IMG/VR virus record: IMGVR_UViG_3300048837_000489 | Span: 1 to 52,785 of that record | Direction: 5' to 3' (one strand) | DNA length: 52,785 nt | DNA from: a virus | Lineage: Duplodnaviria > Caudoviricetes | Shown: positions 25,185 through 48,691 of the stretch, in pieces | Layout of the letters: each line of letters opens with the position of its first letter | Position numbering within the stretch: position 1 is the first letter of the stretch | Made by a program: the position numbers and the translations under genes | The notes under the pieces: generated by a model | Database searches by the model: none | Seen by the model: the letters and a program-made list of their open reading frames with translations, nothing else | Told to the model about the DNA's origin: nothing

Positions 25185-25556
25185 CTATTTCTCCTTGTAA
25201 AACTTCACCAACCCCCTTCTCTCCTCAACCGGCAACCGCTGCCGATCTCTCATTTCCCTATCGCACTGCGAATGAACCGTCCGCACCCGCTCCGCCACAA
25301 TCCGCCGCATCACCTGCCCATCCCACCGCAGCATGTCGCCGCTGAATGAATCGTCTTTGAGCAGCCACCAGCAGCGGACTTCTTCGCGGGAGGTGGCTCG
25401 GTTGAATTGCCAGATGATGATTTGTCGGAATGTCTCCTTGCCGTTTTCGTCGTAGATGATGTTCTGTTCGGCTGTCTCCACGCGGCTTGTCAGCGGGAGG
25501 TCTAGCGGCACTATCGCGAGCATCAGGGCTGCCAGGGTTGGGATGAATCCATTCAC
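25185..25556 (-). CDS. Hypothetical secreted protein
   Basis: Hydrophobic N-terminus; GAGGTG upstream. Confidence 0.6.
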   Translation of the reverse strand: MNGFIPTLAALMLAIVPLDLPLTSRVETAEQNIIYDENGKETFRQIIIWQFNRATSREEVRCWWLLKDDSFSGDMLRWDGQVMRRIVAERVRTVHSQCDREMRDRQRLPVEERRGLVKFYKEK

Positions 25557-25570
25557 GTCGTCACCTCAAA

Positions 25571-25641
25571 CAGCGGCGGTGGGAGTCGAACCCACTCGGA
25601 CGGGATTGAAAGCCCGCTGCGGTCCCCATCGCTTCGCCGCC
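25571..25641 (-). tRNA. Atypical tRNA-like gene with an 8-nt anticodon loop (CUUUCAAU)
   Basis: GGCGGCG AA GCG-ATGGGGAC-CGC A GCGGG-CTTTCAAT-CCCGT CCGA GTGGG-TTCGACT-CCCAC CGCCGCT G. Full cloverleaf with a perfect T-arm; A at position 8; no encoded CCA. Confidence 0.8.
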
Positions 25642-25648
25642 TGGTCGA

Positions 25649-25996
25649 TTATCGTTCGAGCCAATCTTTCACGTCTTGCTCTTTGGTCTTGTACCAGAAG
25701 CCGGTAAGCTTCTTCGTTAATCGCACACGATCAACGGGCGATGCCGTCGTCAACTTTTGCTCAACCGACTTGTACGCTCGCCCTCGCAGGAATGCTAACG
25801 CGAGATGGGCGTATCGGGCTTCCTCTCGCAATCGTCCGCGTCGATGCACTGCCAAGCAATCGCGGTATGCCGGTCCACAGCGTGCCGACTCTTGGCGGTT
25901 CAGTCGCGCTTCGGCAGCGAGCGACTTGACGTTGACTCGCGCCTTGTGGATTCCTGCTATTTTTGCTTCGTAGATGAATTCTTTGCGTTGCAACAT
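25649..25996 (-). CDS. Basic hypothetical protein (KSLAAEAR...HR...REEAR...LAFLRG..Y..VE)
   Basis: ATG at 25996 with AGGA 9 nt upstream; 115 aa; ends 7 nt before the tRNA-like gene. Confidence 0.75.
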   Translation of the reverse strand: MLQRKEFIYEAKIAGIHKARVNVKSLAAEARLNRQESARCGPAYRDCLAVHRRGRLREEARYAHLALAFLRGRAYKSVEQKLTTASPVDRVRLTKKLTGFWYKTKEQDVKDWLER

Positions 25997-26006
25997 TGGT
26001 TCGGTT

Positions 26007-26086
26007 CCTGAATGGGGTTTGGTTGAAAGTACGTCAGCATTCAGGGTGCTAGGGTGGTCTGCATTCACAACATGGGTTAACTCCTC
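26007..26086 (-). promoter_or_regulatory. Leader with a mini-ORF and an RBS-sequestering hairpin (candidate translational attenuator)
   Basis: GAGGAG-7nt-ATG TTG TGA A TGC AGA CCA CCC TAG. CCTGAATG (26045-26038) pairs with CATTCAGG (26014-26007), which overlaps the downstream SD. Confidence 0.65.
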
Positions 26087-26240
26087 TTAATTCGGTCGAA
26101 TGACTGGTTCGCTCGATAACATCACTCCCTCCCCCTTGCACTTCGGGTAGGCGAAAGGGAATCCGCCGATTGTGTCTACTGCCATCATCTCACCTCAAAA
26201 ACGCGGCCTCCTTGCCGCTCTGACACAGGTTGAACCCCTG

Positions 26241-31392: not shown

Positions 31393-31567
31393 AACTAGGG
31401 ACAACTAGGACCACATGTTGGTATCAAAGGACTTACGTCGATTCGATAACTAGGGACTAACTAGGGACTAACCGGGGACAACTAGGGACAGTTTGTGTTC
31501 CAACTATCGGCGCTTAAATTTCTGTTGCAAGGCGTGTCCCTAGTTTGTCCCTAGTTAGGTCCTAGTT
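31393..31567. repeat. Iteron-like array AACTAGGGAC(A/T), direct and inverted; candidate replication origin
   Basis: Direct copies at 31393, 31448, 31459 and 31480, with variants at 31403 and 31470. Inverted copies at 31535 and 31546, with a variant at 31557. An AT-rich tract lies to the left. Confidence 0.8.
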
Positions 31568-32503
31568 GGTCTTTTGGCCATTTCGAAGCTCTACGAGGCG
31601 TTTTTTAACCTCATTGTGGACCATTTCAGCATCAAACTTGAACGCTTCAGGGATTGCCTGATTGATGACGTCGCGTTCGAAAATCACCTTGATTCCTTGG
31701 GTCGAGAAATACTCCACGAAGGTGGCTTCGTCGACTCCGATCCCGGTGTAATCGCGGGTGAACAGAACGTTCGATTTGGAGCGCCGCATCTGCCGGAGAA
31801 TAGCCGGATAGTCGTCGCCGACTTCGGGTTTAATTTCGATGCGGAGGCGGTATTTATTGCGCCAGATCATATCTCTAAAAGAGCGTAAATACTGACCTTC
31901 CCAACTGTCATATGAAGTCCACGATCCATCGCAATGCTGTTTCTTACATTCCCTGGCGTATGTAAAGCCAGCTCCAATTACTTCAAATTCGACGTCTGTT
32001 CCTCCTATCTCAAATTCAGGTGAAGATGATTTGAATTCATGAAGCACGACCTGAATATCGCATTTCTTACCCTCAGATTTTCCAATGGCAGCCCATTGGT
32101 GATTGCCAGATAGGTCAGCTTGAAATGTCATCCCTAATTTTACTTCAACATTGCGCATGTCATTGGCTGCAAATTCACACGCGCTCAACATCCCATCTTC
32201 GCTGGCGAAATCGTTGAACGTCGACTTGATCGCCAGTGCGAACTTCTGACGAAAATCAGCGCTTAAAAACTTCGCCTGCATCTCATTGGACTCTGGCGTC
32301 TCGCTTGGCTCGCCAAAGTTGTTGATGATCACCTGATAGACGTTCTGGTATTTCTGCCGCATCTCTGGCTGCGACATGAACCACTCGCAATAGGACGGAT
32401 CCTGGAGCATGGCCTCGATCGGTTTGCCACGGTACTTTCCAAACGGGACGATGGCACCGCCAGATTGTTGCGGCCGGTCTTCTGGTCCAAATTCAATTGG
32501 CAT
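31562..32503 (-). CDS. DUF3820-like N-terminal domain plus a possible PD-(D/E)XK-like domain
   Basis: PFGKYRGKPIE...DPSYCEW; EFE...TDV...IEIKPEVGDDYP..LRQM. Confidence 0.6.
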   Translation of the reverse strand: MPIEFGPEDRPQQSGGAIVPFGKYRGKPIEAMLQDPSYCEWFMSQPEMRQKYQNVYQVIINNFGEPSETPESNEMQAKFLSADFRQKFALAIKSTFNDFASEDGMLSACEFAANDMRNVEVKLGMTFQADLSGNHQWAAIGKSEGKKCDIQVVLHEFKSSSPEFEIGGTDVEFEVIGAGFTYARECKKQHCDGSWTSYDSWEGQYLRSFRDMIWRNKYRLRIEIKPEVGDDYPAILRQMRRSKSNVLFTRDYTGIGVDEATFVEYFSTQGIKVIFERDVINQAIPEAFKFDAEMVHNEVKKRLVELRNGQKTN

Positions 32504-35192
32504 TGAAAAGCTCCTTTTGTTCTTCGAATGTGGAAACGTCAATCTCTTCACCTTCCTCTGATGCGGATCCTGGACGGATGCCGGTGTAGGCATACTGACG
32601 AGTGCCGTCCGAGAATCGCAGCCTCTTCCGTTCAGAGTGCTTGAAATGCTTCTTTAGCTCCTTGCCGAACGTGCCGTCGCTGACTGGCCTATAGCCGTTT
32701 TCGGTGGCCCAGCCCTTGTACTGATCGAAGATCGTATTGCAGCCCACCCAGCAACTATCTTTGGGCCCGGCTGTGTAATTTGTCTGGAGGAATAGCTTTG
32801 TGGGATTCATTTCGAGCCTGTAGGAATTGGTGGCGTCCATGATCACCTTGGACTCTGAAAACTTTCGCTGCTGAAGCAATCGCGCGAGCCCTACCACCGC
32901 CCAGTTGAACACCCCCGGAAGCTCGCCAGACTGCTCCCACCATCGCGTTTTATCCATGCCAATGATCTTCTCATCGTCCTCAATGGTGACGCGCCAGGGC
33001 ATGCAGATCATTCGCCGCCAAAGTCCGAACGTCTTATCGCTGAATCGTGGCCGGGAGTTTCCAGAGAGGACGAGCCGGGCGTAGGGTGTGCATTCAATCG
33101 GGCTTAGGTTTTTCCGGTTGAACGTCATCGGATCGCCGCTGGTCATCGCCTTCAGTTTACCTTCGGCGGCGTTGTCAATCTCCGAACATTCGTTAGAAAA
33201 ATTGAGCAGTCGACCAAGTAGATTCCCTAGCATGAATTCACTGTTGAAATCCTCCAGGCTTACATGCGAGCAATTGCTCTTGCCGATCATGGCTTCCATG
33301 ACTGCCAGAGCGACGGACTTGCCGTTAGATCCTTCGCCCTCCATGAAAAGAAACTTCTGATAATCGGTCGACGGAATGAGGCAATATCCGAACCACTCTT
33401 GAAGAACCGCAATTCGCTCGCGATCGTCCTCCAAGTTCCTCTTTAGGAATGCTTCCCATTGAGGGCATTCCGCGTCCAGGCTGTATTCGTAAGGCAGGCA
33501 GACGGTTGAGAACCAGTCTGACGTGTGTGGGCGAAGTTCGTCTTCTTCGTCAGCAAGAAGGGCTCCCAGGTCCAGGATCCCGTTCTTCATCGCGATCCAC
33601 TGAGGCTGCTGGCTTCCAGAGCGTCGACCACTGCTGTCGATGAGCGAATTGAGTTCGATTTCACTGCTAAGAATCTGCATGCTGGATGTGGCCTGAATTA
33701 CGTTTGCCACTATGTCTCGCGTCACCTTACGGGCTTCGGGCCGTGGTTTCGGCTTCCCGCTTTTGTCCGTTTCTTCATCTTGCTTTTGTCGGCTTTTCTC
33801 CCATGCCATTTGTGCTAGTATGTTGGCGCGGTTGAATTCCTCCTTAACGGATCCAGAAATCTTGGCGGCGAATTCTTTTGGGGAGATCTTACGATAGCGA
33901 TTTGCTTTGTAGACATACCATTCCTCCCGCCAATATCTAATTGTGCCGCCGTCCGTGAGTGCCGCATAGCGTTCGAGGTTGGCGACGGCCAGGCGGTGTG
34001 GATCGTCGATCGCTTCGTTTGGGGTGAGGTCGGTTTCAAAATCCTCGGAGTTGGTCGACCCGGGCCCGGGCAATTCCGCCGCGGGAACTTCGGGCGCCAC
34101 TTCCGCTAGCCGGAGCAATTCCGCGAAAACGTCCACCCGATCCTGGGCGAAGTCTCGCAGATCCTTGCCGTGGTTCTTCTCGATTTGGTAGGGGAGTTCC
34201 GGGACGCGAGAGGTGGTCGCGCGCGAAGCAATCCAGTTTCCCCAACCTGGATGGAAGTCATCGGCGTCGTCCGTGTAGCCACTCGCGCCACGTTGGCCAG
34301 GGATGTCGGCGTCGTGGAGGGTGTAGGCGTGGCGACCGGCGAAAAGCTCGAGCATCCAGGGGAGTGGCTTCTCCCCGGCGCCGTTCGCGTTTGTGATGGC
34401 GGCGTGGCCGGCGGCGATTGAATTGGTGTCCCGCTCGAGCGAATAGAACGTGAGGAGGTCGGTGATTCCCTCGAGCTTCCAGAGGTGGGTGGATTCGGCA
34501 AGGTCGTCGACCGGCCCGAGAATCCCCTGCTGGCTGCCGTAGGTGAGTTTGACTTTCAGGCGTTCAACTGTTTCATACTCGCCCGTTTTGCTGTTTTGCT
34601 TTTTCAGCGGCAGCGTTCCGCCGCGAATATCGTACAGAGCCCACCCCACCGGCTCGGCGGCCGTCAGCTTCTCACCCCATACCGGAATGGCAATCACCTT
34701 ATACTGGCCGCGGTAGAGAGCCTGCCGCGCGTGGCAGCGGATAAGGGCATCCAGGGTGATGGGCGGTTTCGCACGGCAGAAATGGGCGGCGAGCATCGAG
34801 TTGATAGCGGCGTCGAAGCGGAGATCCTTGGCGGGGTCGATACTGGCCTTTCCGTTGCGTCCGGTACCAGCTCCCGAATTCCCTCCACCCTGGCAGCCCA
34901 AATGCTCCGCAACTCTCCGCAGCGTCTCCTTCGCATCCCACCCGCAGAGCGATTGCAGCAACGCGAACCCGTCGCCGAATTTCCCGCACTGGTTGCAGAT
35001 TCCGCCGCCGCCGTCGTCCAGGTTAGTCCACCGCCAGCGATCGGTCCCGCCGCATTTCGGACAGGGACCGTGGCGGCCAGTGAGGTAGTCGGAAGAGACG
35101 TGTGCGAGCGCGGAGAGGATTTCCACCCATCGCCCGGCGGCGCGTCCCTTGACGTAGGCGAATGAGCGGTCTGGATTGGGCTTCCGGGCCAT
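32493..35192 (-). CDS. P4-alpha/D5-type primase-helicase
   Basis: Zinc ribbon HGPCPKCGGTDRW, TOPRIM-like LEGITD...HDAD, D5_N-like MKNGILDL, and SF3 Walker A GEGSNGKS. Confidence 0.9.
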   Translation of the reverse strand: MARKPNPDRSFAYVKGRAAGRWVEILSALAHVSSDYLTGRHGPCPKCGGTDRWRWTNLDDGGGGICNQCGKFGDGFALLQSLCGWDAKETLRRVAEHLGCQGGGNSGAGTGRNGKASIDPAKDLRFDAAINSMLAAHFCRAKPPITLDALIRCHARQALYRGQYKVIAIPVWGEKLTAAEPVGWALYDIRGGTLPLKKQNSKTGEYETVERLKVKLTYGSQQGILGPVDDLAESTHLWKLEGITDLLTFYSLERDTNSIAAGHAAITNANGAGEKPLPWMLELFAGRHAYTLHDADIPGQRGASGYTDDADDFHPGWGNWIASRATTSRVPELPYQIEKNHGKDLRDFAQDRVDVFAELLRLAEVAPEVPAAELPGPGSTNSEDFETDLTPNEAIDDPHRLAVANLERYAALTDGGTIRYWREEWYVYKANRYRKISPKEFAAKISGSVKEEFNRANILAQMAWEKSRQKQDEETDKSGKPKPRPEARKVTRDIVANVIQATSSMQILSSEIELNSLIDSSGRRSGSQQPQWIAMKNGILDLGALLADEEDELRPHTSDWFSTVCLPYEYSLDAECPQWEAFLKRNLEDDRERIAVLQEWFGYCLIPSTDYQKFLFMEGEGSNGKSVALAVMEAMIGKSNCSHVSLEDFNSEFMLGNLLGRLLNFSNECSEIDNAAEGKLKAMTSGDPMTFNRKNLSPIECTPYARLVLSGNSRPRFSDKTFGLWRRMICMPWRVTIEDDEKIIGMDKTRWWEQSGELPGVFNWAVVGLARLLQQRKFSESKVIMDATNSYRLEMNPTKLFLQTNYTAGPKDSCWVGCNTIFDQYKGWATENGYRPVSDGTFGKELKKHFKHSERKRLRFSDGTRQYAYTGIRPGSASEEGEEIDVSTFEEQKELFNAN

Positions 35193-39222: not shown

Positions 39223-39597
39223 TCAAAAACCCTGGCTGCAATAGGCCACATAACTCCGCCCGCATTCATCCGAGCAGCAGTAATCGTTGTCGTAGCATTC
39301 GCCGCCGCAATTCGGGCACATGCCGGTCGGCTCCTTTTGCGACTCGTCGCGCGGTATGTAATCGCCCTTTCCAAGCGATGGAAACTGAGCGGCGGTCGGG
39401 TCGATGATGTCACCTTCCGCTGTCACCAGCCACCAGTGATCGCGGAGACCCCACGCCCAGCAAAGGTATTGCCCGCGCACGCGAATGAGTTCAGGGAACG
39501 CCTCCTGCATTTTGGTTGTCGCCTCCGCACATGCACCATAGGCTTGCGTGCGCGAACGATAATGCTCGTTGATCCAGTTTTGGTATTCAGCTTTCAC
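39223..39597 (-). CDS. Small transglutaminase/papain-like fold protein with a C-terminal zinc finger
   Basis: GAC...HWWL...IIDPTAAQF triad pattern; CPNC...CCSDEC; GTGA-coupled start. Confidence 0.65.
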   Translation of the reverse strand: MKAEYQNWINEHYRSRTQAYGACAEATTKMQEAFPELIRVRGQYLCWAWGLRDHWWLVTAEGDIIDPTAAQFPSLGKGDYIPRDESQKEPTGMCPNCGGECYDNDYCCSDECGRSYVAYCSQGF

Positions 39598-42137
39598 AGC
39601 AATTCCTCCAACTTTCGATTGTTGATAGCGGTAACGATTCGCTCTCTCAGAAACGTTTTTCGTCCATCCAACGCGGATCGACGGCAGAACCCTCTCGCAA
39701 CTTCGATCTTGCCGACGGGGAGCGTTAGCACCTTGCCGCGAGAAATGGCGGTGAAGAACCATTCGCGAGTGCCGCGCGTTCCGAGCGATTCGTCAACGAT
39801 TGGCAACGCGATACGGGTCTCCGCTCCTTGACATTTGTGGACCGTGGCAGCGTACGCGAGGGAAAGCTTTCCGCTATCGCCGCTGCCTTCCGTTTCTTCG
39901 CCGTCCGTCTCCTCCACCGACGCCGCGTTCTCCTCATCCTCCCTGGCAGCCGACCGTGCGTTGAACACCGGGACGATCACAGTTCCCGCCGCGCCGCGAC
40001 CCTCGAATTCGATGACGACCTTTGATGGTTCGGATTCCGTCACTCTCCCGAATTCACCTTTCGCGATAAACGTCGTTTCTTCGTCGTCGTCGCTCTCCGG
40101 TTTCTCCGCGAGCTTGTACATCCCGTTCTGCTCGCACACCACCTTATCGCCGGTCAAGTAAACCGCACCTTTCGGGCCGCTGCCGTTGGGGTTCAGTTCG
40201 CGCTGCAACATCTCGTTAAGCGGTAGCCGTGATACCTTCCCCTGCTTGTTCAGAGCGACCATAACTTGGCAGTCCCACACCGGGTCGAATCCTTCCGCAC
40301 CCATCATCTGTAGAACTTCCACCAGCCGCTCAACTTGTGCGTCGGGGTTCTCCGCGCGGACGAATTTGAAATTGGCGGGAGGGCTCGCCATCCAATCGAG
40401 TCGTGCCGACTGCCGAAACTCCACACCCCGCCGGATGTCGTCGCACGCGAACACAATATCTCCGGCGTTCCGTTGCGGTTCCGTCAGTTCACCAAACGGC
40501 AACACGCCACTTCCCAGCATGTCTCTAAACGGCGCGCCGGGTTCGATCGGTGGCAACTGCATGGTGTCGCCGACGAACATGATGTGAGTGCCGGCCGGGC
40601 ACGCGCGGATGATAGAGCAAAGCATGTTCGGCGCTCGCATCGACGATTCGTCCAGGAAGATGACCTTGTAGCGGAGCGGTTTTCGCTCGTTGTGGCGAAA
40701 CGTCCAGACGCTACCCTGCACCGAATCCACACCAAGCAACCGATGCTCCGAAACGGCGGTTAGGTCGATGTCGTTCGCGCGGAGTGCGTTCGTCAACCGC
40801 ACCGCCGCTTTGTTCGTGGGAGCCGCTACCGCGATGTTCTCGCTGCCGAACTTGGCGATGCAGGCTTTGATGTAGGCCGCCGTCGTGTGGCTCTTCCCGG
40901 TTCCAGGTCCACCAATCAAGCTGCACACCGCACCCCTGGTAGCCTTCTCGAGCGCCGCCGCCTGATGGTCGCTGATCCCCTTACATTCCTCCACGCGCGG
41001 CCAGTGTGGAGTAGCCAACGCCAACTGCGCCAACTTCTCTGCGATGAGCAATTCCGCCGAGTCCCGCCGACGCTCCGCGATCCACTGGATTCTTCCGCCT
41101 GGCTGCTCGCCCGCGACGTGAACAAGAGGAGCGCCGCCAGGGGTGGAGGTGAAAACTTCGGACAGATACCCGTCGCGGATTCCGAGTCTTACCGCCTTCC
41201 CTGGTTGCACTTCCGCGCCGCCGACTTTCGCCTCAATCGCTTTCTCTAGGAACTGAACGGGAAACCAAGTCGAGCCGCTCCGATCCTTATGAATCGCGTT
41301 CACACCGCAGAACATTTGCCGCTTCAGGTCGTCTAACGGCAAGCCGAGCTTTTGGTATAGGTTGTCCACCTTCGCGAATCCGCAGCCGTAGAAATTGTCC
41401 ACCAGCAAGCGGAACGGGTCGGTCTTCAGCACGTCGGCCGCCTTCGCACCGTATCGCCGAATCAACTCCTTTGGTAGGTCGCGAGGGAATCCCATCCCGC
41501 GAATGATGCCGTCGATGGCGATCCTCGTATCCTCCGTCCTGGCCGAGCGCTCGAGGATCGACGCAATCACCTTCATGTTCGCGAGCGAGACGTGACATCG
41601 GCCAGCCGCCTTCAGCGCCGCGTGTGCCGTCTCTGGATCGGTGCGGAGAACTGTAACGGCAGCCGGGCCGAACTTGTCGAATAAAGTCGACGCCGATGCC
41701 GCGCCGAGACCGTAGCCTGCGCCGGCCGCCTCCAGGTAGCGGACCACCGCGCCGCGATCATGCTGCTCGGCGAGGGTGAAGGAGCGGGCGGAGAATTGGG
41801 GCTCGCCGCGATATTCTTTGTGGGTGCCGTAGAAACGGTAGTGGCAGAATGGGATAAGGCGATGGGAGAGGATTGCACCCAGGGAAGTGGAATCGTCGGC
41901 CGGTTCGGCGGGCTCTCCTGAATCCTCTACCCTGGCAGCCGCTTTTCCGAGTTCCTCACTCGTCACCCCGCCAATCCAAACGCCGATCTCCTTGCCAGTC
42001 GTCTCGCCATTTATGACTTCGCAGTCCGCTAAGACACGGAACGTGCCATCCTCATTCGCGAAGATGAAGTCACCAGCACGGCCGCGCCGGCGGATTCCTT
42101 TGTAGCGTGCGGTGAGTTCGACAAGCGGAGCGGGCAC
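39594..42137 (-). CDS. recD2: RecD2-like SF1B helicase
   Basis: GGPGTGKS, APTNKAA, LDESSM, VGDTMQLPPI, GDKV and YAATVHKCQG motifs, plus the N-terminal HhH region. Confidence 0.88.
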   Translation of the reverse strand: MPAPLVELTARYKGIRRRGRAGDFIFANEDGTFRVLADCEVINGETTGKEIGVWIGGVTSEELGKAAARVEDSGEPAEPADDSTSLGAILSHRLIPFCHYRFYGTHKEYRGEPQFSARSFTLAEQHDRGAVVRYLEAAGAGYGLGAASASTLFDKFGPAAVTVLRTDPETAHAALKAAGRCHVSLANMKVIASILERSARTEDTRIAIDGIIRGMGFPRDLPKELIRRYGAKAADVLKTDPFRLLVDNFYGCGFAKVDNLYQKLGLPLDDLKRQMFCGVNAIHKDRSGSTWFPVQFLEKAIEAKVGGAEVQPGKAVRLGIRDGYLSEVFTSTPGGAPLVHVAGEQPGGRIQWIAERRRDSAELLIAEKLAQLALATPHWPRVEECKGISDHQAAALEKATRGAVCSLIGGPGTGKSHTTAAYIKACIAKFGSENIAVAAPTNKAAVRLTNALRANDIDLTAVSEHRLLGVDSVQGSVWTFRHNERKPLRYKVIFLDESSMRAPNMLCSIIRACPAGTHIMFVGDTMQLPPIEPGAPFRDMLGSGVLPFGELTEPQRNAGDIVFACDDIRRGVEFRQSARLDWMASPPANFKFVRAENPDAQVERLVEVLQMMGAEGFDPVWDCQVMVALNKQGKVSRLPLNEMLQRELNPNGSGPKGAVYLTGDKVVCEQNGMYKLAEKPESDDDEETTFIAKGEFGRVTESEPSKVVIEFEGRGAAGTVIVPVFNARSAAREDEENAASVEETDGEETEGSGDSGKLSLAYAATVHKCQGAETRIALPIVDESLGTRGTREWFFTAISRGKVLTLPVGKIEVARGFCRRSALDGRKTFLRERIVTAINNRKLEELL

Positions 42138-48428: not shown

Positions 48429-48691
48429 TGCTAAACCCTCCGTAACAAATCGAAGTGAGCGGACCTACGGCGGCGCGAGAACAACTCGACACCGCCGGTT
48501 CAGTCCGTTTCGTCGGCTCCTTGCCGACGCATCCGATTAACTCACTCCGAGTTCCTAAGCATCCATGTAGCCGCGTCGTGCGTGACGGGGCGCAGTGCTT
48601 GGTTGAAAAGTTGCGGGCCGCTGTATCGATCAGCGTTTAACGAGCGTATGAAACTCGTGAGATTGCCAAACCTCCCACCCGCAAAGGTGAA

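Follow-up and report, generated by a model that had tools for sequence, protein, structure and literature searches.

A phage-borne transfer RNA with an eight-nucleotide anticodon loop and a matching four-base leader codon: a candidate translational switch

The cassette and its parts

The window considered here is the whole of a 52,785-bp linear IMG/VR viral contig (IMGVR_UViG_3300048837_000489), which is about 59% complete, belongs to a tailed phage and holds nearly all of its genes on the minus strand. Within it, a short leader, a hairpin, the gene of a basic protein of 115 amino acids (aa) and a transfer RNA (tRNA) gene with an anticodon loop of 8 nucleotides (nt) form a segment that is a self-contained phage cassette (Table 1). 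Every element that a first-pass annotation of this DNA had described was found on the minus strand at the position assigned to it, and the cassette is proposed here to be a translational switch, in which the tRNA would shift ribosomes by +1 past the stop codon of the leader and so turn on the gene.

Table 1. Positions of the cassette elements, their surroundings and other window genes named in the text (SD, Shine-Dalgarno sequence; ORF, open reading frame)
Feature	Positions	Strand	Remark
Cassette extent, presence/absence polymorphism	25545-26145		defined from the contig of run X5
Leader SD GAGGAG	26081-26086	minus	7 nt before the leader ATG
Leader mini-ORF, frame 0, ATG TTG TGA	26065-26073	minus	
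Four-base codon UGAA	26064-26067	minus	exact complement of UUCA
+1-frame ORF TGC AGA CCA CCC TAG	26049-26063	minus	C-R-P-P-stop
SD-sequestering hairpin	26007-26045	minus	
Hairpin 5' arm CCTGAATG	26038-26045	minus	3 nt past the +1 stop
Hairpin 3' arm CATTCAGG	26007-26014	minus	overlaps the SD AGGA at 26006-26009
115-aa basic protein gene	25649-25996	minus	ATG at 25996, stop TAA at 25649-25651
tRNA, 8-nt anticodon loop CUUUCAAU	25571-25641	minus	without encoded CCA; loop at 25605-25612, UUCA at 25607-25610
33-aa ORF	26087-26188	minus	
Terminator-like hairpin	26203-26218	minus	just upstream of the cassette
Portal/MuF fusion, 1,161 aa	1556-5041	minus	
Large terminase, 893 aa	17651-20332	minus	
D5-like primase-helicase	32493-35192		
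RecD-like helicase	39594-42137		
tRNA-Met (cat)	48610-48683	minus	below the Rfam gathering threshold

The tRNA gene has its 5' end 7 nt past the stop codon of the protein gene. It is called by ARAGORN with a four-base anticodon (ttca) and matches the Rfam tRNA family RF00005 over model positions 1-71 with 39.5 bits, above the cut-off of 29; tRNA was the only family found in an Rfam scan of the window. In place of the canonical 7-nt anticodon loop it has a loop of 8 nt, CTTTCAAT (CUUUCAAT in DNA letters), which is set between covarying stem pairs and carries the UUCA that the first-pass annotation had recognised as the exact complement of UGAA in the leader. The same annotation had raised the possibility that an assembly error accounts for the extra base in the loop; this is excluded by the agreement of four independent assemblies (contigs from four runs of four studies span the whole tRNA with 0 indels and 0 substitutions) and by the recurrence of the 8-nt loop across dozens of diverged contigs.

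Relatives of the 115-aa protein were collected in a homolog-first sample of 46 loci, 38 from metagenomes and 8 viral. ARAGORN called a tRNA with the four-base anticodon (ttca) at 18 of the 46, starting no more than about 60 nt after the gene in 14 of these 18, and one with the four-base anticodon (tcta) at a single locus. Odd calls (ttc, tc) proved on inspection to be the same 8-nt loop, and dedicated scans recovered extra copies that ARAGORN had missed at L003, L022, L030, L034, L044 and L046 and in G002, which is a complete genome of 172 kb. UUCA is invariant in an alignment of 20 such tRNAs, for which RNAalifold gave 16 consensus pairs, with compensatory changes at 14, and a consensus in which eight unpaired columns are flanked by four anticodon-stem pairs; the acceptor, anticodon and T stems all covary. 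Both gene orders occur: where the gene precedes the tRNA, the gap between stop codon and tRNA is 6-7 nt in 15 of 28 loci, and in the reverse order, 13-45 nt separate the end of the tRNA from the leader start in 12 of 15. An origin of the tRNA from tRNA-Glu is plausible from the loop alone, the tRNA bodies being heterogeneous. At one locus (L036), two more tRNAs with 8-nt loops (1144-1221 and 1223-1301), with the central bases CUCG and UUCG and with CCA encoded, closely follow the gene for a distant homolog of the 115-aa protein.

The protein itself has an isoelectric point of 10.3 and contains 27 lysine and arginine residues against 13 aspartate and glutamate residues. Its family is large: a word-indexed search returned 67 relatives at E <= 0.01 among 99 candidates, and a HMMER profile run against 1.84 billion representatives matched 2,895 clusters (50% identity) at E <= 1e-3, of which 1,362 were retained at the stricter E <= 1e-10. 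Most relatives are 100-120 aa long and their starts coincide with the ATG of the window gene; no longer or fused forms of the protein were found, which is weak evidence. The window protein matches no Pfam, PHROG or NCBIfam entry, and a scan of 38 family members against the same collections gave single-member matches only, with E >= 0.0077. The AlphaFold model (predicted local distance difference test score, pLDDT, 84.3) consists of two 30-residue helices arranged as a hairpin and three short helices. The best Foldseek match of this model in the PDB has E 0.54, the best of 48,161 chains in VIA-align reaches Z 7.2, with all hits being generic helical hairpins and thus uninformative, and the ESM Atlas holds no usable match. 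A HEPN-like R-x5-H motif picked out by eye was rejected because its arginine is not conserved. Moreover, a scan of one genome each from 185,579 bacterial and archaeal species gave 20 pattern matches, with no confirmed relative or prophage copy among them.

The limits of the cassette are visible in the contig of run X5, in which position 25544 is joined to 26146 and 112 other letters replace the cassette; related phages therefore exist with and without it, and in this run the cassette-free form has a depth of 42.8 versus 5.18 for the cassette form. No third conserved gene belongs to the cassette, since the sole ORF family present in at least 5 of 56 module loci is the protein itself, and neither an integrase nor any other conserved neighbour was found across these loci. 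A promoter and terminator scan placed the terminator-like hairpin of Table 1 and gave no sigma-70-like site around the cassette. The 33-aa ORF lies directly against the leader, its TAA immediately preceding the leader SD; in three other assemblies, the change 26089 A>G (plus strand) turns the T of this TAA into C and the stop is lost, which is the reason why a long N-terminal extension is called for the relative P0001.

Leader frame, hairpin and codon-anticodon covariation

In the window leader, translation in frame 0 would end at the third triplet, UGA, and the putative RAPP-like arrest motif beyond it is accessible only via a +1 shift at UGAA. Relatives have the same layout, with an SD-like sequence ahead of the leader start, a few codons, a stop followed by A (UGA-A or UAG-A) and then [R/K]-x-P-P in the +1 frame. 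A strict detector was built on this layout and required a stop plus A, an uninterrupted frame from a start at most 12 codons upstream, and the motif no more than 13 residues away. It found a leader in the +1 frame at 57 of 74 non-redundant protein-bearing loci and in the other two frames at 4 and 2 of the 74, while 20 rounds of shuffled upstream regions gave 0-2 strict leaders per round. The 57 leaders start with ATG (47), TTG (6) or GTG (4), and the stop comes 1-12 codons in, with 54 of them having it within 1-5 codons. Frame 0 is often shut right after UGA, as by ATG TAG in L008, L021, L030 and L043. The two single-nucleotide polymorphisms that the window population carries in the leader, at 26058 (AGA>AGG) and 26052 (CCC>CCA), are silent in the +1 frame only. 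Two loci (L011 and L033) have no separate leader: their main ORF lacks a start codon in its own frame and can be entered only via a start, 2-3 more codons, UGAA and a +1 shift. Judged from these leader sequences, the +1 frame is evidently under selection.

The motif is RGPP in 21 of the 57 leaders, RSPP in 9, RAPP in 8, RDPP in 6 and RPP in 4, the rarer forms being KSPP (3), RPPP (2), KPPP (2), KDPP (1) and REPP (1). Its arginine is encoded by AGA (27), CGT (12), AGG (5), CGC (4) and CGA (3), and the use of both arginine codon families places the constraint on the amino acid. A stop directly follows P-P in 20 of the 57. The passages of PMC12992588 on these motifs rank RGPP and RAPP as the strongest known RAPP-like arrest sequences and RDPP and RSPP as partly permissive, report all four to be depleted from bacterial proteomes, and describe the arrest as resistant to EF-P. 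The window motif, R-P-P-stop, is one of the four RPP forms; its arginine stands two residues before the P-site proline, as in RAPP, and the stop replaces the A-site proline. The putative pause element, which the first-pass annotation had taken for Pro-Pro-stop, is better termed RAPP-like, of the type [R/K]-x-P-P, than Pro-Pro-stop alone.

The surroundings of the quadruplet are constrained in a different manner. The codon preceding it takes 23 forms, none of them slippery and with ACC, ACG and TTG the commonest, which argues against P-site slippage of the prfB type. The base that follows it is U in 55 of the 57 leaders (26063 in the window), a constraint at the nucleotide level, so that the +1 frame begins with C, Y, L, F, W or S. 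Where the window leader reads cysteine, what is conserved is thus really the U. A second +1 slip at CCC-UAG into the frame of the gene, also put forward in the first-pass annotation, is unlikely, since leader and gene do not keep a constant frame relation from locus to locus. In a few relatives, leader and tRNA are both missing (L002, L009/L010 and L038) or a degenerate leader stands without a tRNA (L012), a distribution that is consistent with the joint loss of the two elements. Two related loci, L015 and L044, have a phage-encoded transfer-messenger RNA (tmRNA; tag AKSFAVAA) at 2628-2887 and 2628-2882, respectively, about 60 nt upstream of the leader, and the presence of a tmRNA beside a ribosome-arrest leader is a notable arrangement.

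Downstream of the leader, the hairpin that covers the SD of the gene is conserved as a structure rather than as a sequence. The stretch from the motif to the main start was folded for 31 loci, with a mean z of -2.87 and an SD that is mostly paired in 77% of them; the arm sequences are unrelated between loci, the SD is always covered by the 3' arm, and the 5' arm begins 0-14 nt past the motif or stop. An SD-sequestering leader hairpin of the erm/secM type is therefore found across this set. The distance from the quadruplet to the main start is 66-79 nt in 29 of the 31 loci. In 16 loci, including the window, the stop of the +1 ORF lies shortly before the 5' arm, at a distance of 41-59 nt from the main ATG, and in L042 this distance is 83 nt. 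In nine others the +1 ORF crosses the hairpin and stops on the main ATG (-5 to +8 nt), and in L019 and L028 it continues into the main ORF.

The leader codon changes together with the anticodon. A strict automated count gave UGAA with UUCA at 35 loci, UAGA with UCUA at 3 and no crossed pair (Fisher p = 1.2e-4, not corrected for relatedness), a further 19 leaders having no tRNA in the strict tRNA scan. At L023, for example, a TAGA leader is followed by C-R-G-P-P, and the tRNA has an 8-nt loop with UCUA. A scan for UCUA loops returned five viral loci: three encode the protein, each with a TAGA leader whose +1 frame contains RGPP, RSPP or RDPP, while the other two are a normal 7-nt tRNA-Arg without the protein and an ambiguous case. 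By pattern, L181 can be counted as a fourth locus with UAGA and UCUA. In a weakly supported tree, it does not share a major branch with L023, which suggests that the switch between UGAA and UAGA took place at least twice. In terms of sequence, the tRNA therefore has the features of a quadruplet decoder, with the matched pairs UUCA/UGAA and UCUA/UAGA and with an arrest motif or the main ORF in the +1 frame.

The linkage was also approached from the tRNA side. A scan of all viral contigs for the loop and T-arm pattern served as a tRNA-first control, and among the 80 of 98 contigs listed, the protein is carried on the same strand by 43 of 48 with an 8-nt or ambiguous loop versus 0 of 32 with an ordinary 7-nt-loop tRNA-Glu (Fisher p = 2e-17). 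The protein is likewise absent from all 78 loci with a tRNA-Lys/UUUA pattern, and no UAA-A/UUUA version of the cassette was found among these 78. With the leader, the SD hairpin and the adjacent 8-nt-loop tRNA kept in homologs, and with quadruplet codon and anticodon covarying, the two comparative checks that the first-pass annotation had proposed both came out in its favour.

A tblastn search of 50,697 phage records placed the protein in four groups, namely the Stenotrophomonas phages DLP5, DLP3 and Summit, Bacteriophage DSS3_MAL1, the Agrobacterium phages OLIVR1-3, and the uncultured Phage NCTB. NCTB has UGAA followed by C-N-R-G-P-P and a tRNA with the loop AUUUCAAC 2.6 kb upstream. The DLP5 gene is separated by 7 nt from a downstream tRNA that has the annotation Sup-CTA, a 7-nt loop and an Rfam score of 67.7 bits, and the leader has an early TAG and then V-Y-K-P-P-stop in frame 0; in the passages of the DLP3 paper that deal with it, Sup-CTA is an uncommented entry (PMC7326821). 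In DSS3_MAL1 and OLIVR1, the tRNA stands just upstream, reads UAG and has an unusual anticodon arm, and the frame-0 motifs R-P-P-P-stop and K-K-P-P-stop, respectively, adjoin long SD-covering hairpins. By their sequences, these UAG cassettes appear to follow the same logic with a third codon/anticodon state. Because UAG-reading tRNAs and frame-0 motifs occur together in cultured phages, a general rule may be formulated in which an arrest leader would be unlocked by a private tRNA that decodes a stop, the commonest version being the four-base one to which the window belongs. The OLIVR1 homolog gp84 (L269, MT234338.1, 1489-1956) adjoins the virion RNA polymerase gene, and its label of "putative structural protein", for which the main text of the OLIVR1 paper gives no proteomic basis, was not retained.

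The proposed switch and its rivals

The features described above can be combined into the following mechanism. In the off state, ribosomes would initiate at the strong SD and ATG of the two-codon mini-ORF and reach UGA, where release factor 2 (RF2) would win the competition; the ribosomes would come off some 20 nt short of the hairpin, the SD would stay paired and the gene would be off. In the on state, the charged UUCA tRNA would compete with RF2 and take UGA-A, so that the ribosome would proceed one base to the right, stall or terminate slowly on C-R-P-P-stop and have its leading edge on the 5' arm, whereupon the hairpin would melt, the SD would be freed and the 115-aa protein would be made. 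In some relatives, the +1 event would feed directly into the protein frame or the +1 ORF would end on the protein start, and these direct-fusion and overlap forms point to a conserved logic whereby synthesis of the protein would depend on decoding of the stop by the private tRNA. The core of the first-pass reading (+1 at UGAA, pause, SD opening) is thus supported by the comparative data on the parts, their linkage, the selection on the +1 frame, the codon-anticodon covariation and the conservation of the hairpin, and a probability of roughly 70% is assigned to the mechanism as a whole. Several of its steps are presumptive: the tRNA would have to be charged, glutamate being a guess for the amino acid, the shift would occur in the A site, where a net +1 would suffice and four base pairs would not be required, and the motif would have to arrest the ribosome with a nascent chain of 7 residues. 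The suppressor-tRNA literature leaves open whether four codon-anticodon pairs form.

A number of observations weigh against this mechanism. The tRNA bodies are heterogeneous, with weak D arms, a variable discriminator base and, in the window, a score of 39.5 bits only, so that charging and acceptance by EF-Tu can only be presumed, and several of the tRNAs were missed by ARAGORN. The mechanism offers no explanation for the U that follows the quadruplet. The window has R-P-P-stop instead of the canonical RxPP, and its nascent chain at the pause is just 7 residues long; RAPP arrest was studied with longer N-terminal contexts in the experiments described in the relevant passages of PMC12992588. 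The window hairpin is weak, with a folding free energy of -8.8 kcal/mol and a z of -0.78 versus shuffles. Some loci have an incomplete set of parts: no clear leader accompanies the tRNA and the protein in L106, L122, L136 and L103, L025 has the tRNA and neither a start codon nor a leader, and L004, L021 and L039 have a leader and no tRNA within the available sequence. In OLIVR1, the anticodon arm of the tRNA is expanded, yet the arrest motif is in frame 0; an enlarged loop is therefore by itself no proof of four-base reading, and the evidence for +1 reading in the class to which the window belongs comes from the leader frames. Lastly, 8 of 58 likely window genes end in TGAA. An efficient reader of UGAA would be costly, therefore its efficiency must be low or context-dependent, and an efficient, unrestricted reader is also disfavoured by the three phage genomes inspected, where open +1 frames are not enriched behind TGAA.

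The last point belongs to a wider examination of code use. Genome-wide stop-codon reassignment was rejected, as the 58 long ORFs that make up a contiguous minus-strand set in the window are open under code 11 and end in TAA (25), TGA (19) and TAG (14). A genome-wide fusion of genes through UGAA was also rejected, as pairs of TGAA with an open +1 ORF are no commoner than those with other stop contexts in the three phage genomes inspected (window, G001 and G002). The primase-helicase gene of the window (minus strand) ends in TGAA and its +1 frame is open for 309 codons into the ORF at 31562-32593 (minus strand), which is probably due to chance, given that a third of neighbouring genes would show such a junction.

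The possibility that the tRNA is an ordinary triplet decoder, either a nuclease-resistant tRNA-Glu for GAA or a UGA suppressor, placed beside a leader that independently senses arrest or release factors, is improbable. It would account for the order of bases in the loop, where an A stands behind UUC, a sequence shared with the 7-nt tRNA-Glu loops CUUUCAA of other phages, and for the expanded-arm tRNA of OLIVR1, which seems to read in frame 0; phage tRNAs whose altered anticodon loops evade host nucleases have reportedly been published (PMC10264068). However, an ordinary decoder would not explain why the stop+1 base of the leader tracks the anticodon with no crossed pair, why the arrest motif lies in the +1 frame at 57 of 74 loci versus 4 of 74 in frame 0, why frame 0 is shut directly after UGA in several loci, or why none of the 32 normal tRNA-Glu loci among the 80 contigs carries the protein. 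Another reading, quite improbable as well, dispenses with the tRNA in decoding and lets the shift occur spontaneously or be driven by the host, with the leader sensing RF2 or RF1 in the manner of prfB and the tRNA serving another job. UGA and UAG are each recognised by a single release factor. The early in-frame UGA and the required +1 frame do reproduce the generally known prfB layout, and the leaders use UGA and UAG and never UAA, in compliance with the sensing of a single factor. What sets this reading aside is the diversity of the 23 codons before the quadruplet, with no slippery P-site codon among them, the lack of an SD-like stimulator 3 nt upstream, and the behaviour of the tRNA: in the +1 class, the fourth base always complements the first anticodon base, and a change from UGAA to UAGA is accompanied by a change in the tRNA.

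A role outside translation, with the tRNA-like gene acting as a signal for the processing or stability of messenger RNA (mRNA), as a decoy or as a recombination site that is linked to the gene by co-mobility, would agree with the fixed spacing of 6-7 nt between stop codon and tRNA at 15 of 28 gene-then-tRNA loci, with the presence/absence polymorphism of the cassette and with the degenerate tRNA bodies. This role is nonetheless very improbable, in that the anticodon loop itself is the invariant part and matches the leader codon, the two gene orders coexist, no integrase or other conserved neighbour accompanies the cassette, and no relative was confirmed among the 185,579 species genomes. The window is admittedly a single metagenomic contig of partial completeness, but chance or an assembly artefact can be regarded as refuted, given the counts of strict leaders against shuffled regions, the four assemblies that are identical over the tRNA and the recurrence of loop and leader in dozens of diverged contigs.

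The role of the 115-aa protein within the switch is a matter of tentative choice. A feedback on the activity of the tRNA itself and an effector whose production is timed or licensed by the tRNA are each credited with the same modest likelihood, well short of even odds; a governor role is proposed because leader sensors such as those of prfB, antizyme and SecM usually regulate the activity that they sense. The purposes suggested in the first-pass annotation, namely a feedback loop, a timer or a sensor of tRNA damage, are conjectural as well. A broader view, which is unlikely but deserves mention, sees the cassette as an autonomous, horizontally mobile genetic-code module that would equip the infected cell with a regulated four-base codon, and whose real targets would be UGA-A stops elsewhere, in genes of the host or of the phage, read with a +1 shift while the infection lasts. 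The protein would then be the governor that sequesters the tRNA or helps it, and the leader sensor would close the loop. If this were true, controlled four-base decoding would be a viral infection strategy that exists in the versions UGAA, UAGA and plain UAG.

Further genes of the window have features of their own. Residues 328-380 of the large terminase form a LAGLIDADG_3 segment with terminase-like sequence on both sides, suggestive of an intein or of the insertion of a homing endonuclease. The portal/MuF fusion joins a Mu-like portal, a 2H-phosphoesterase domain (2_5_RNA_ligase2) and a MuF-like head protein, and its 2_5_RNA_ligase2 domain has a weak match to Acb1, which acts against the cyclic-oligonucleotide-based antiphage signalling system (CBASS). 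The second tRNA of the window, the tRNA-Met of Table 1, is an ARAGORN call.

Known systems and significance

The cassette shares individual traits with several known systems. As in prfB, an early in-frame UGA would be passed by a +1 shift in competition with RF2, and the site would act as the sensor. prfB relies on P-site slippage on a slippery codon with the help of an internal SD, whereas the cassette has 23 different codons before the quadruplet, an initiation SD as its only SD, and a dedicated tRNA with the matching four-base anticodon encoded alongside; moreover, its shifted frame mostly encodes an arrest motif and not a product. RAPP-type arrest peptides (ApdA, ApdP and ApcA, and SecM with RAGP) control a downstream gene, as set out in the parts of PMC12992588 that deal with them, with PMC10951233 and PMC7897499 as further reported sources. 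Many relatives of the cassette resemble them in that a short ORF ahead of the gene carries R-[A/G/S/D]-P-P towards its end and the SD of the gene is in a hairpin that stalling would open. The cassette differs from them in that the frame of the motif requires a stop to be decoded, the trigger would be a tRNA and not the activity of Sec or YidC, the peptides have about 6-12 residues and no export signal, and the window variant is R-P-P-stop.

Four-base decoding is familiar from laboratory suppressor mutants and from synthetic biology. The tRNAs of the sufD, sufJ and SufB2 type are reported to have an 8-nt loop and to cause a +1 shift (PMC7803779, PMC4238358 and PMC9094753), and the cassette tRNA is like them in that four central loop bases complement a four-base codon, which would give a net shift of +1. 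In contrast to these laboratory mutants or designs, it is natural, virus-encoded and conserved throughout a very large family, and comes with its own cognate site. As one of a small number of natural cases in which the anticodon loop is not standard, the relevant section of a review (Atkins 2016, PMC5009743) names "tRNAs in a phage ... that has many relatives". Phage suppressor tRNAs are a further parallel, as stop-reading tRNAs borne by phages and, in DLP5 and DLP3, as the annotation Sup-CTA given to the cassette tRNA itself; unlike the suppressors that accompany reassignment, the cassette involves no genome-wide recoding and the stop to be read belongs to a leader only a few codons long. Finally, in attenuation, erm-type leaders and T-boxes, a short leader senses how a tRNA or ribosome is placed on it, which selects the mRNA structure and thereby sets the expression of the gene downstream, but they respond to host tRNAs or drugs at sense codons, whereas the cassette would respond to a private tRNA at a stop plus one base.

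The full-text literature searched holds no natural phage quadruplet tRNA with a cognate leader; the supplementary lists of upstream ORFs of PMC12992588, which this search did not cover, may contain members. The mechanisms are individually known, and their combination around a dedicated natural four-base codon/anticodon pair was not found in that literature and would be new. If the proposed switch is true, it would be the first natural genetically encoded quadruplet codon/anticodon system and would define a translational switch of a new class, with a private tRNA as the trans-acting key of an arrest-peptide leader. It would also supply ready-made orthogonal parts for the expansion of the genetic code, as many natural sets of tRNA, codon and leader with a built-in read-out. 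For phage biology, the question posed is that of a family of about 2,900 clusters that stands beside such tRNAs and of which no member was confirmed in the 185,579 species genomes. Cultured relatives with the UAG version exist in DLP5, DLP3 and OLIVR1-3, together with the records for Summit and DSS3_MAL1.

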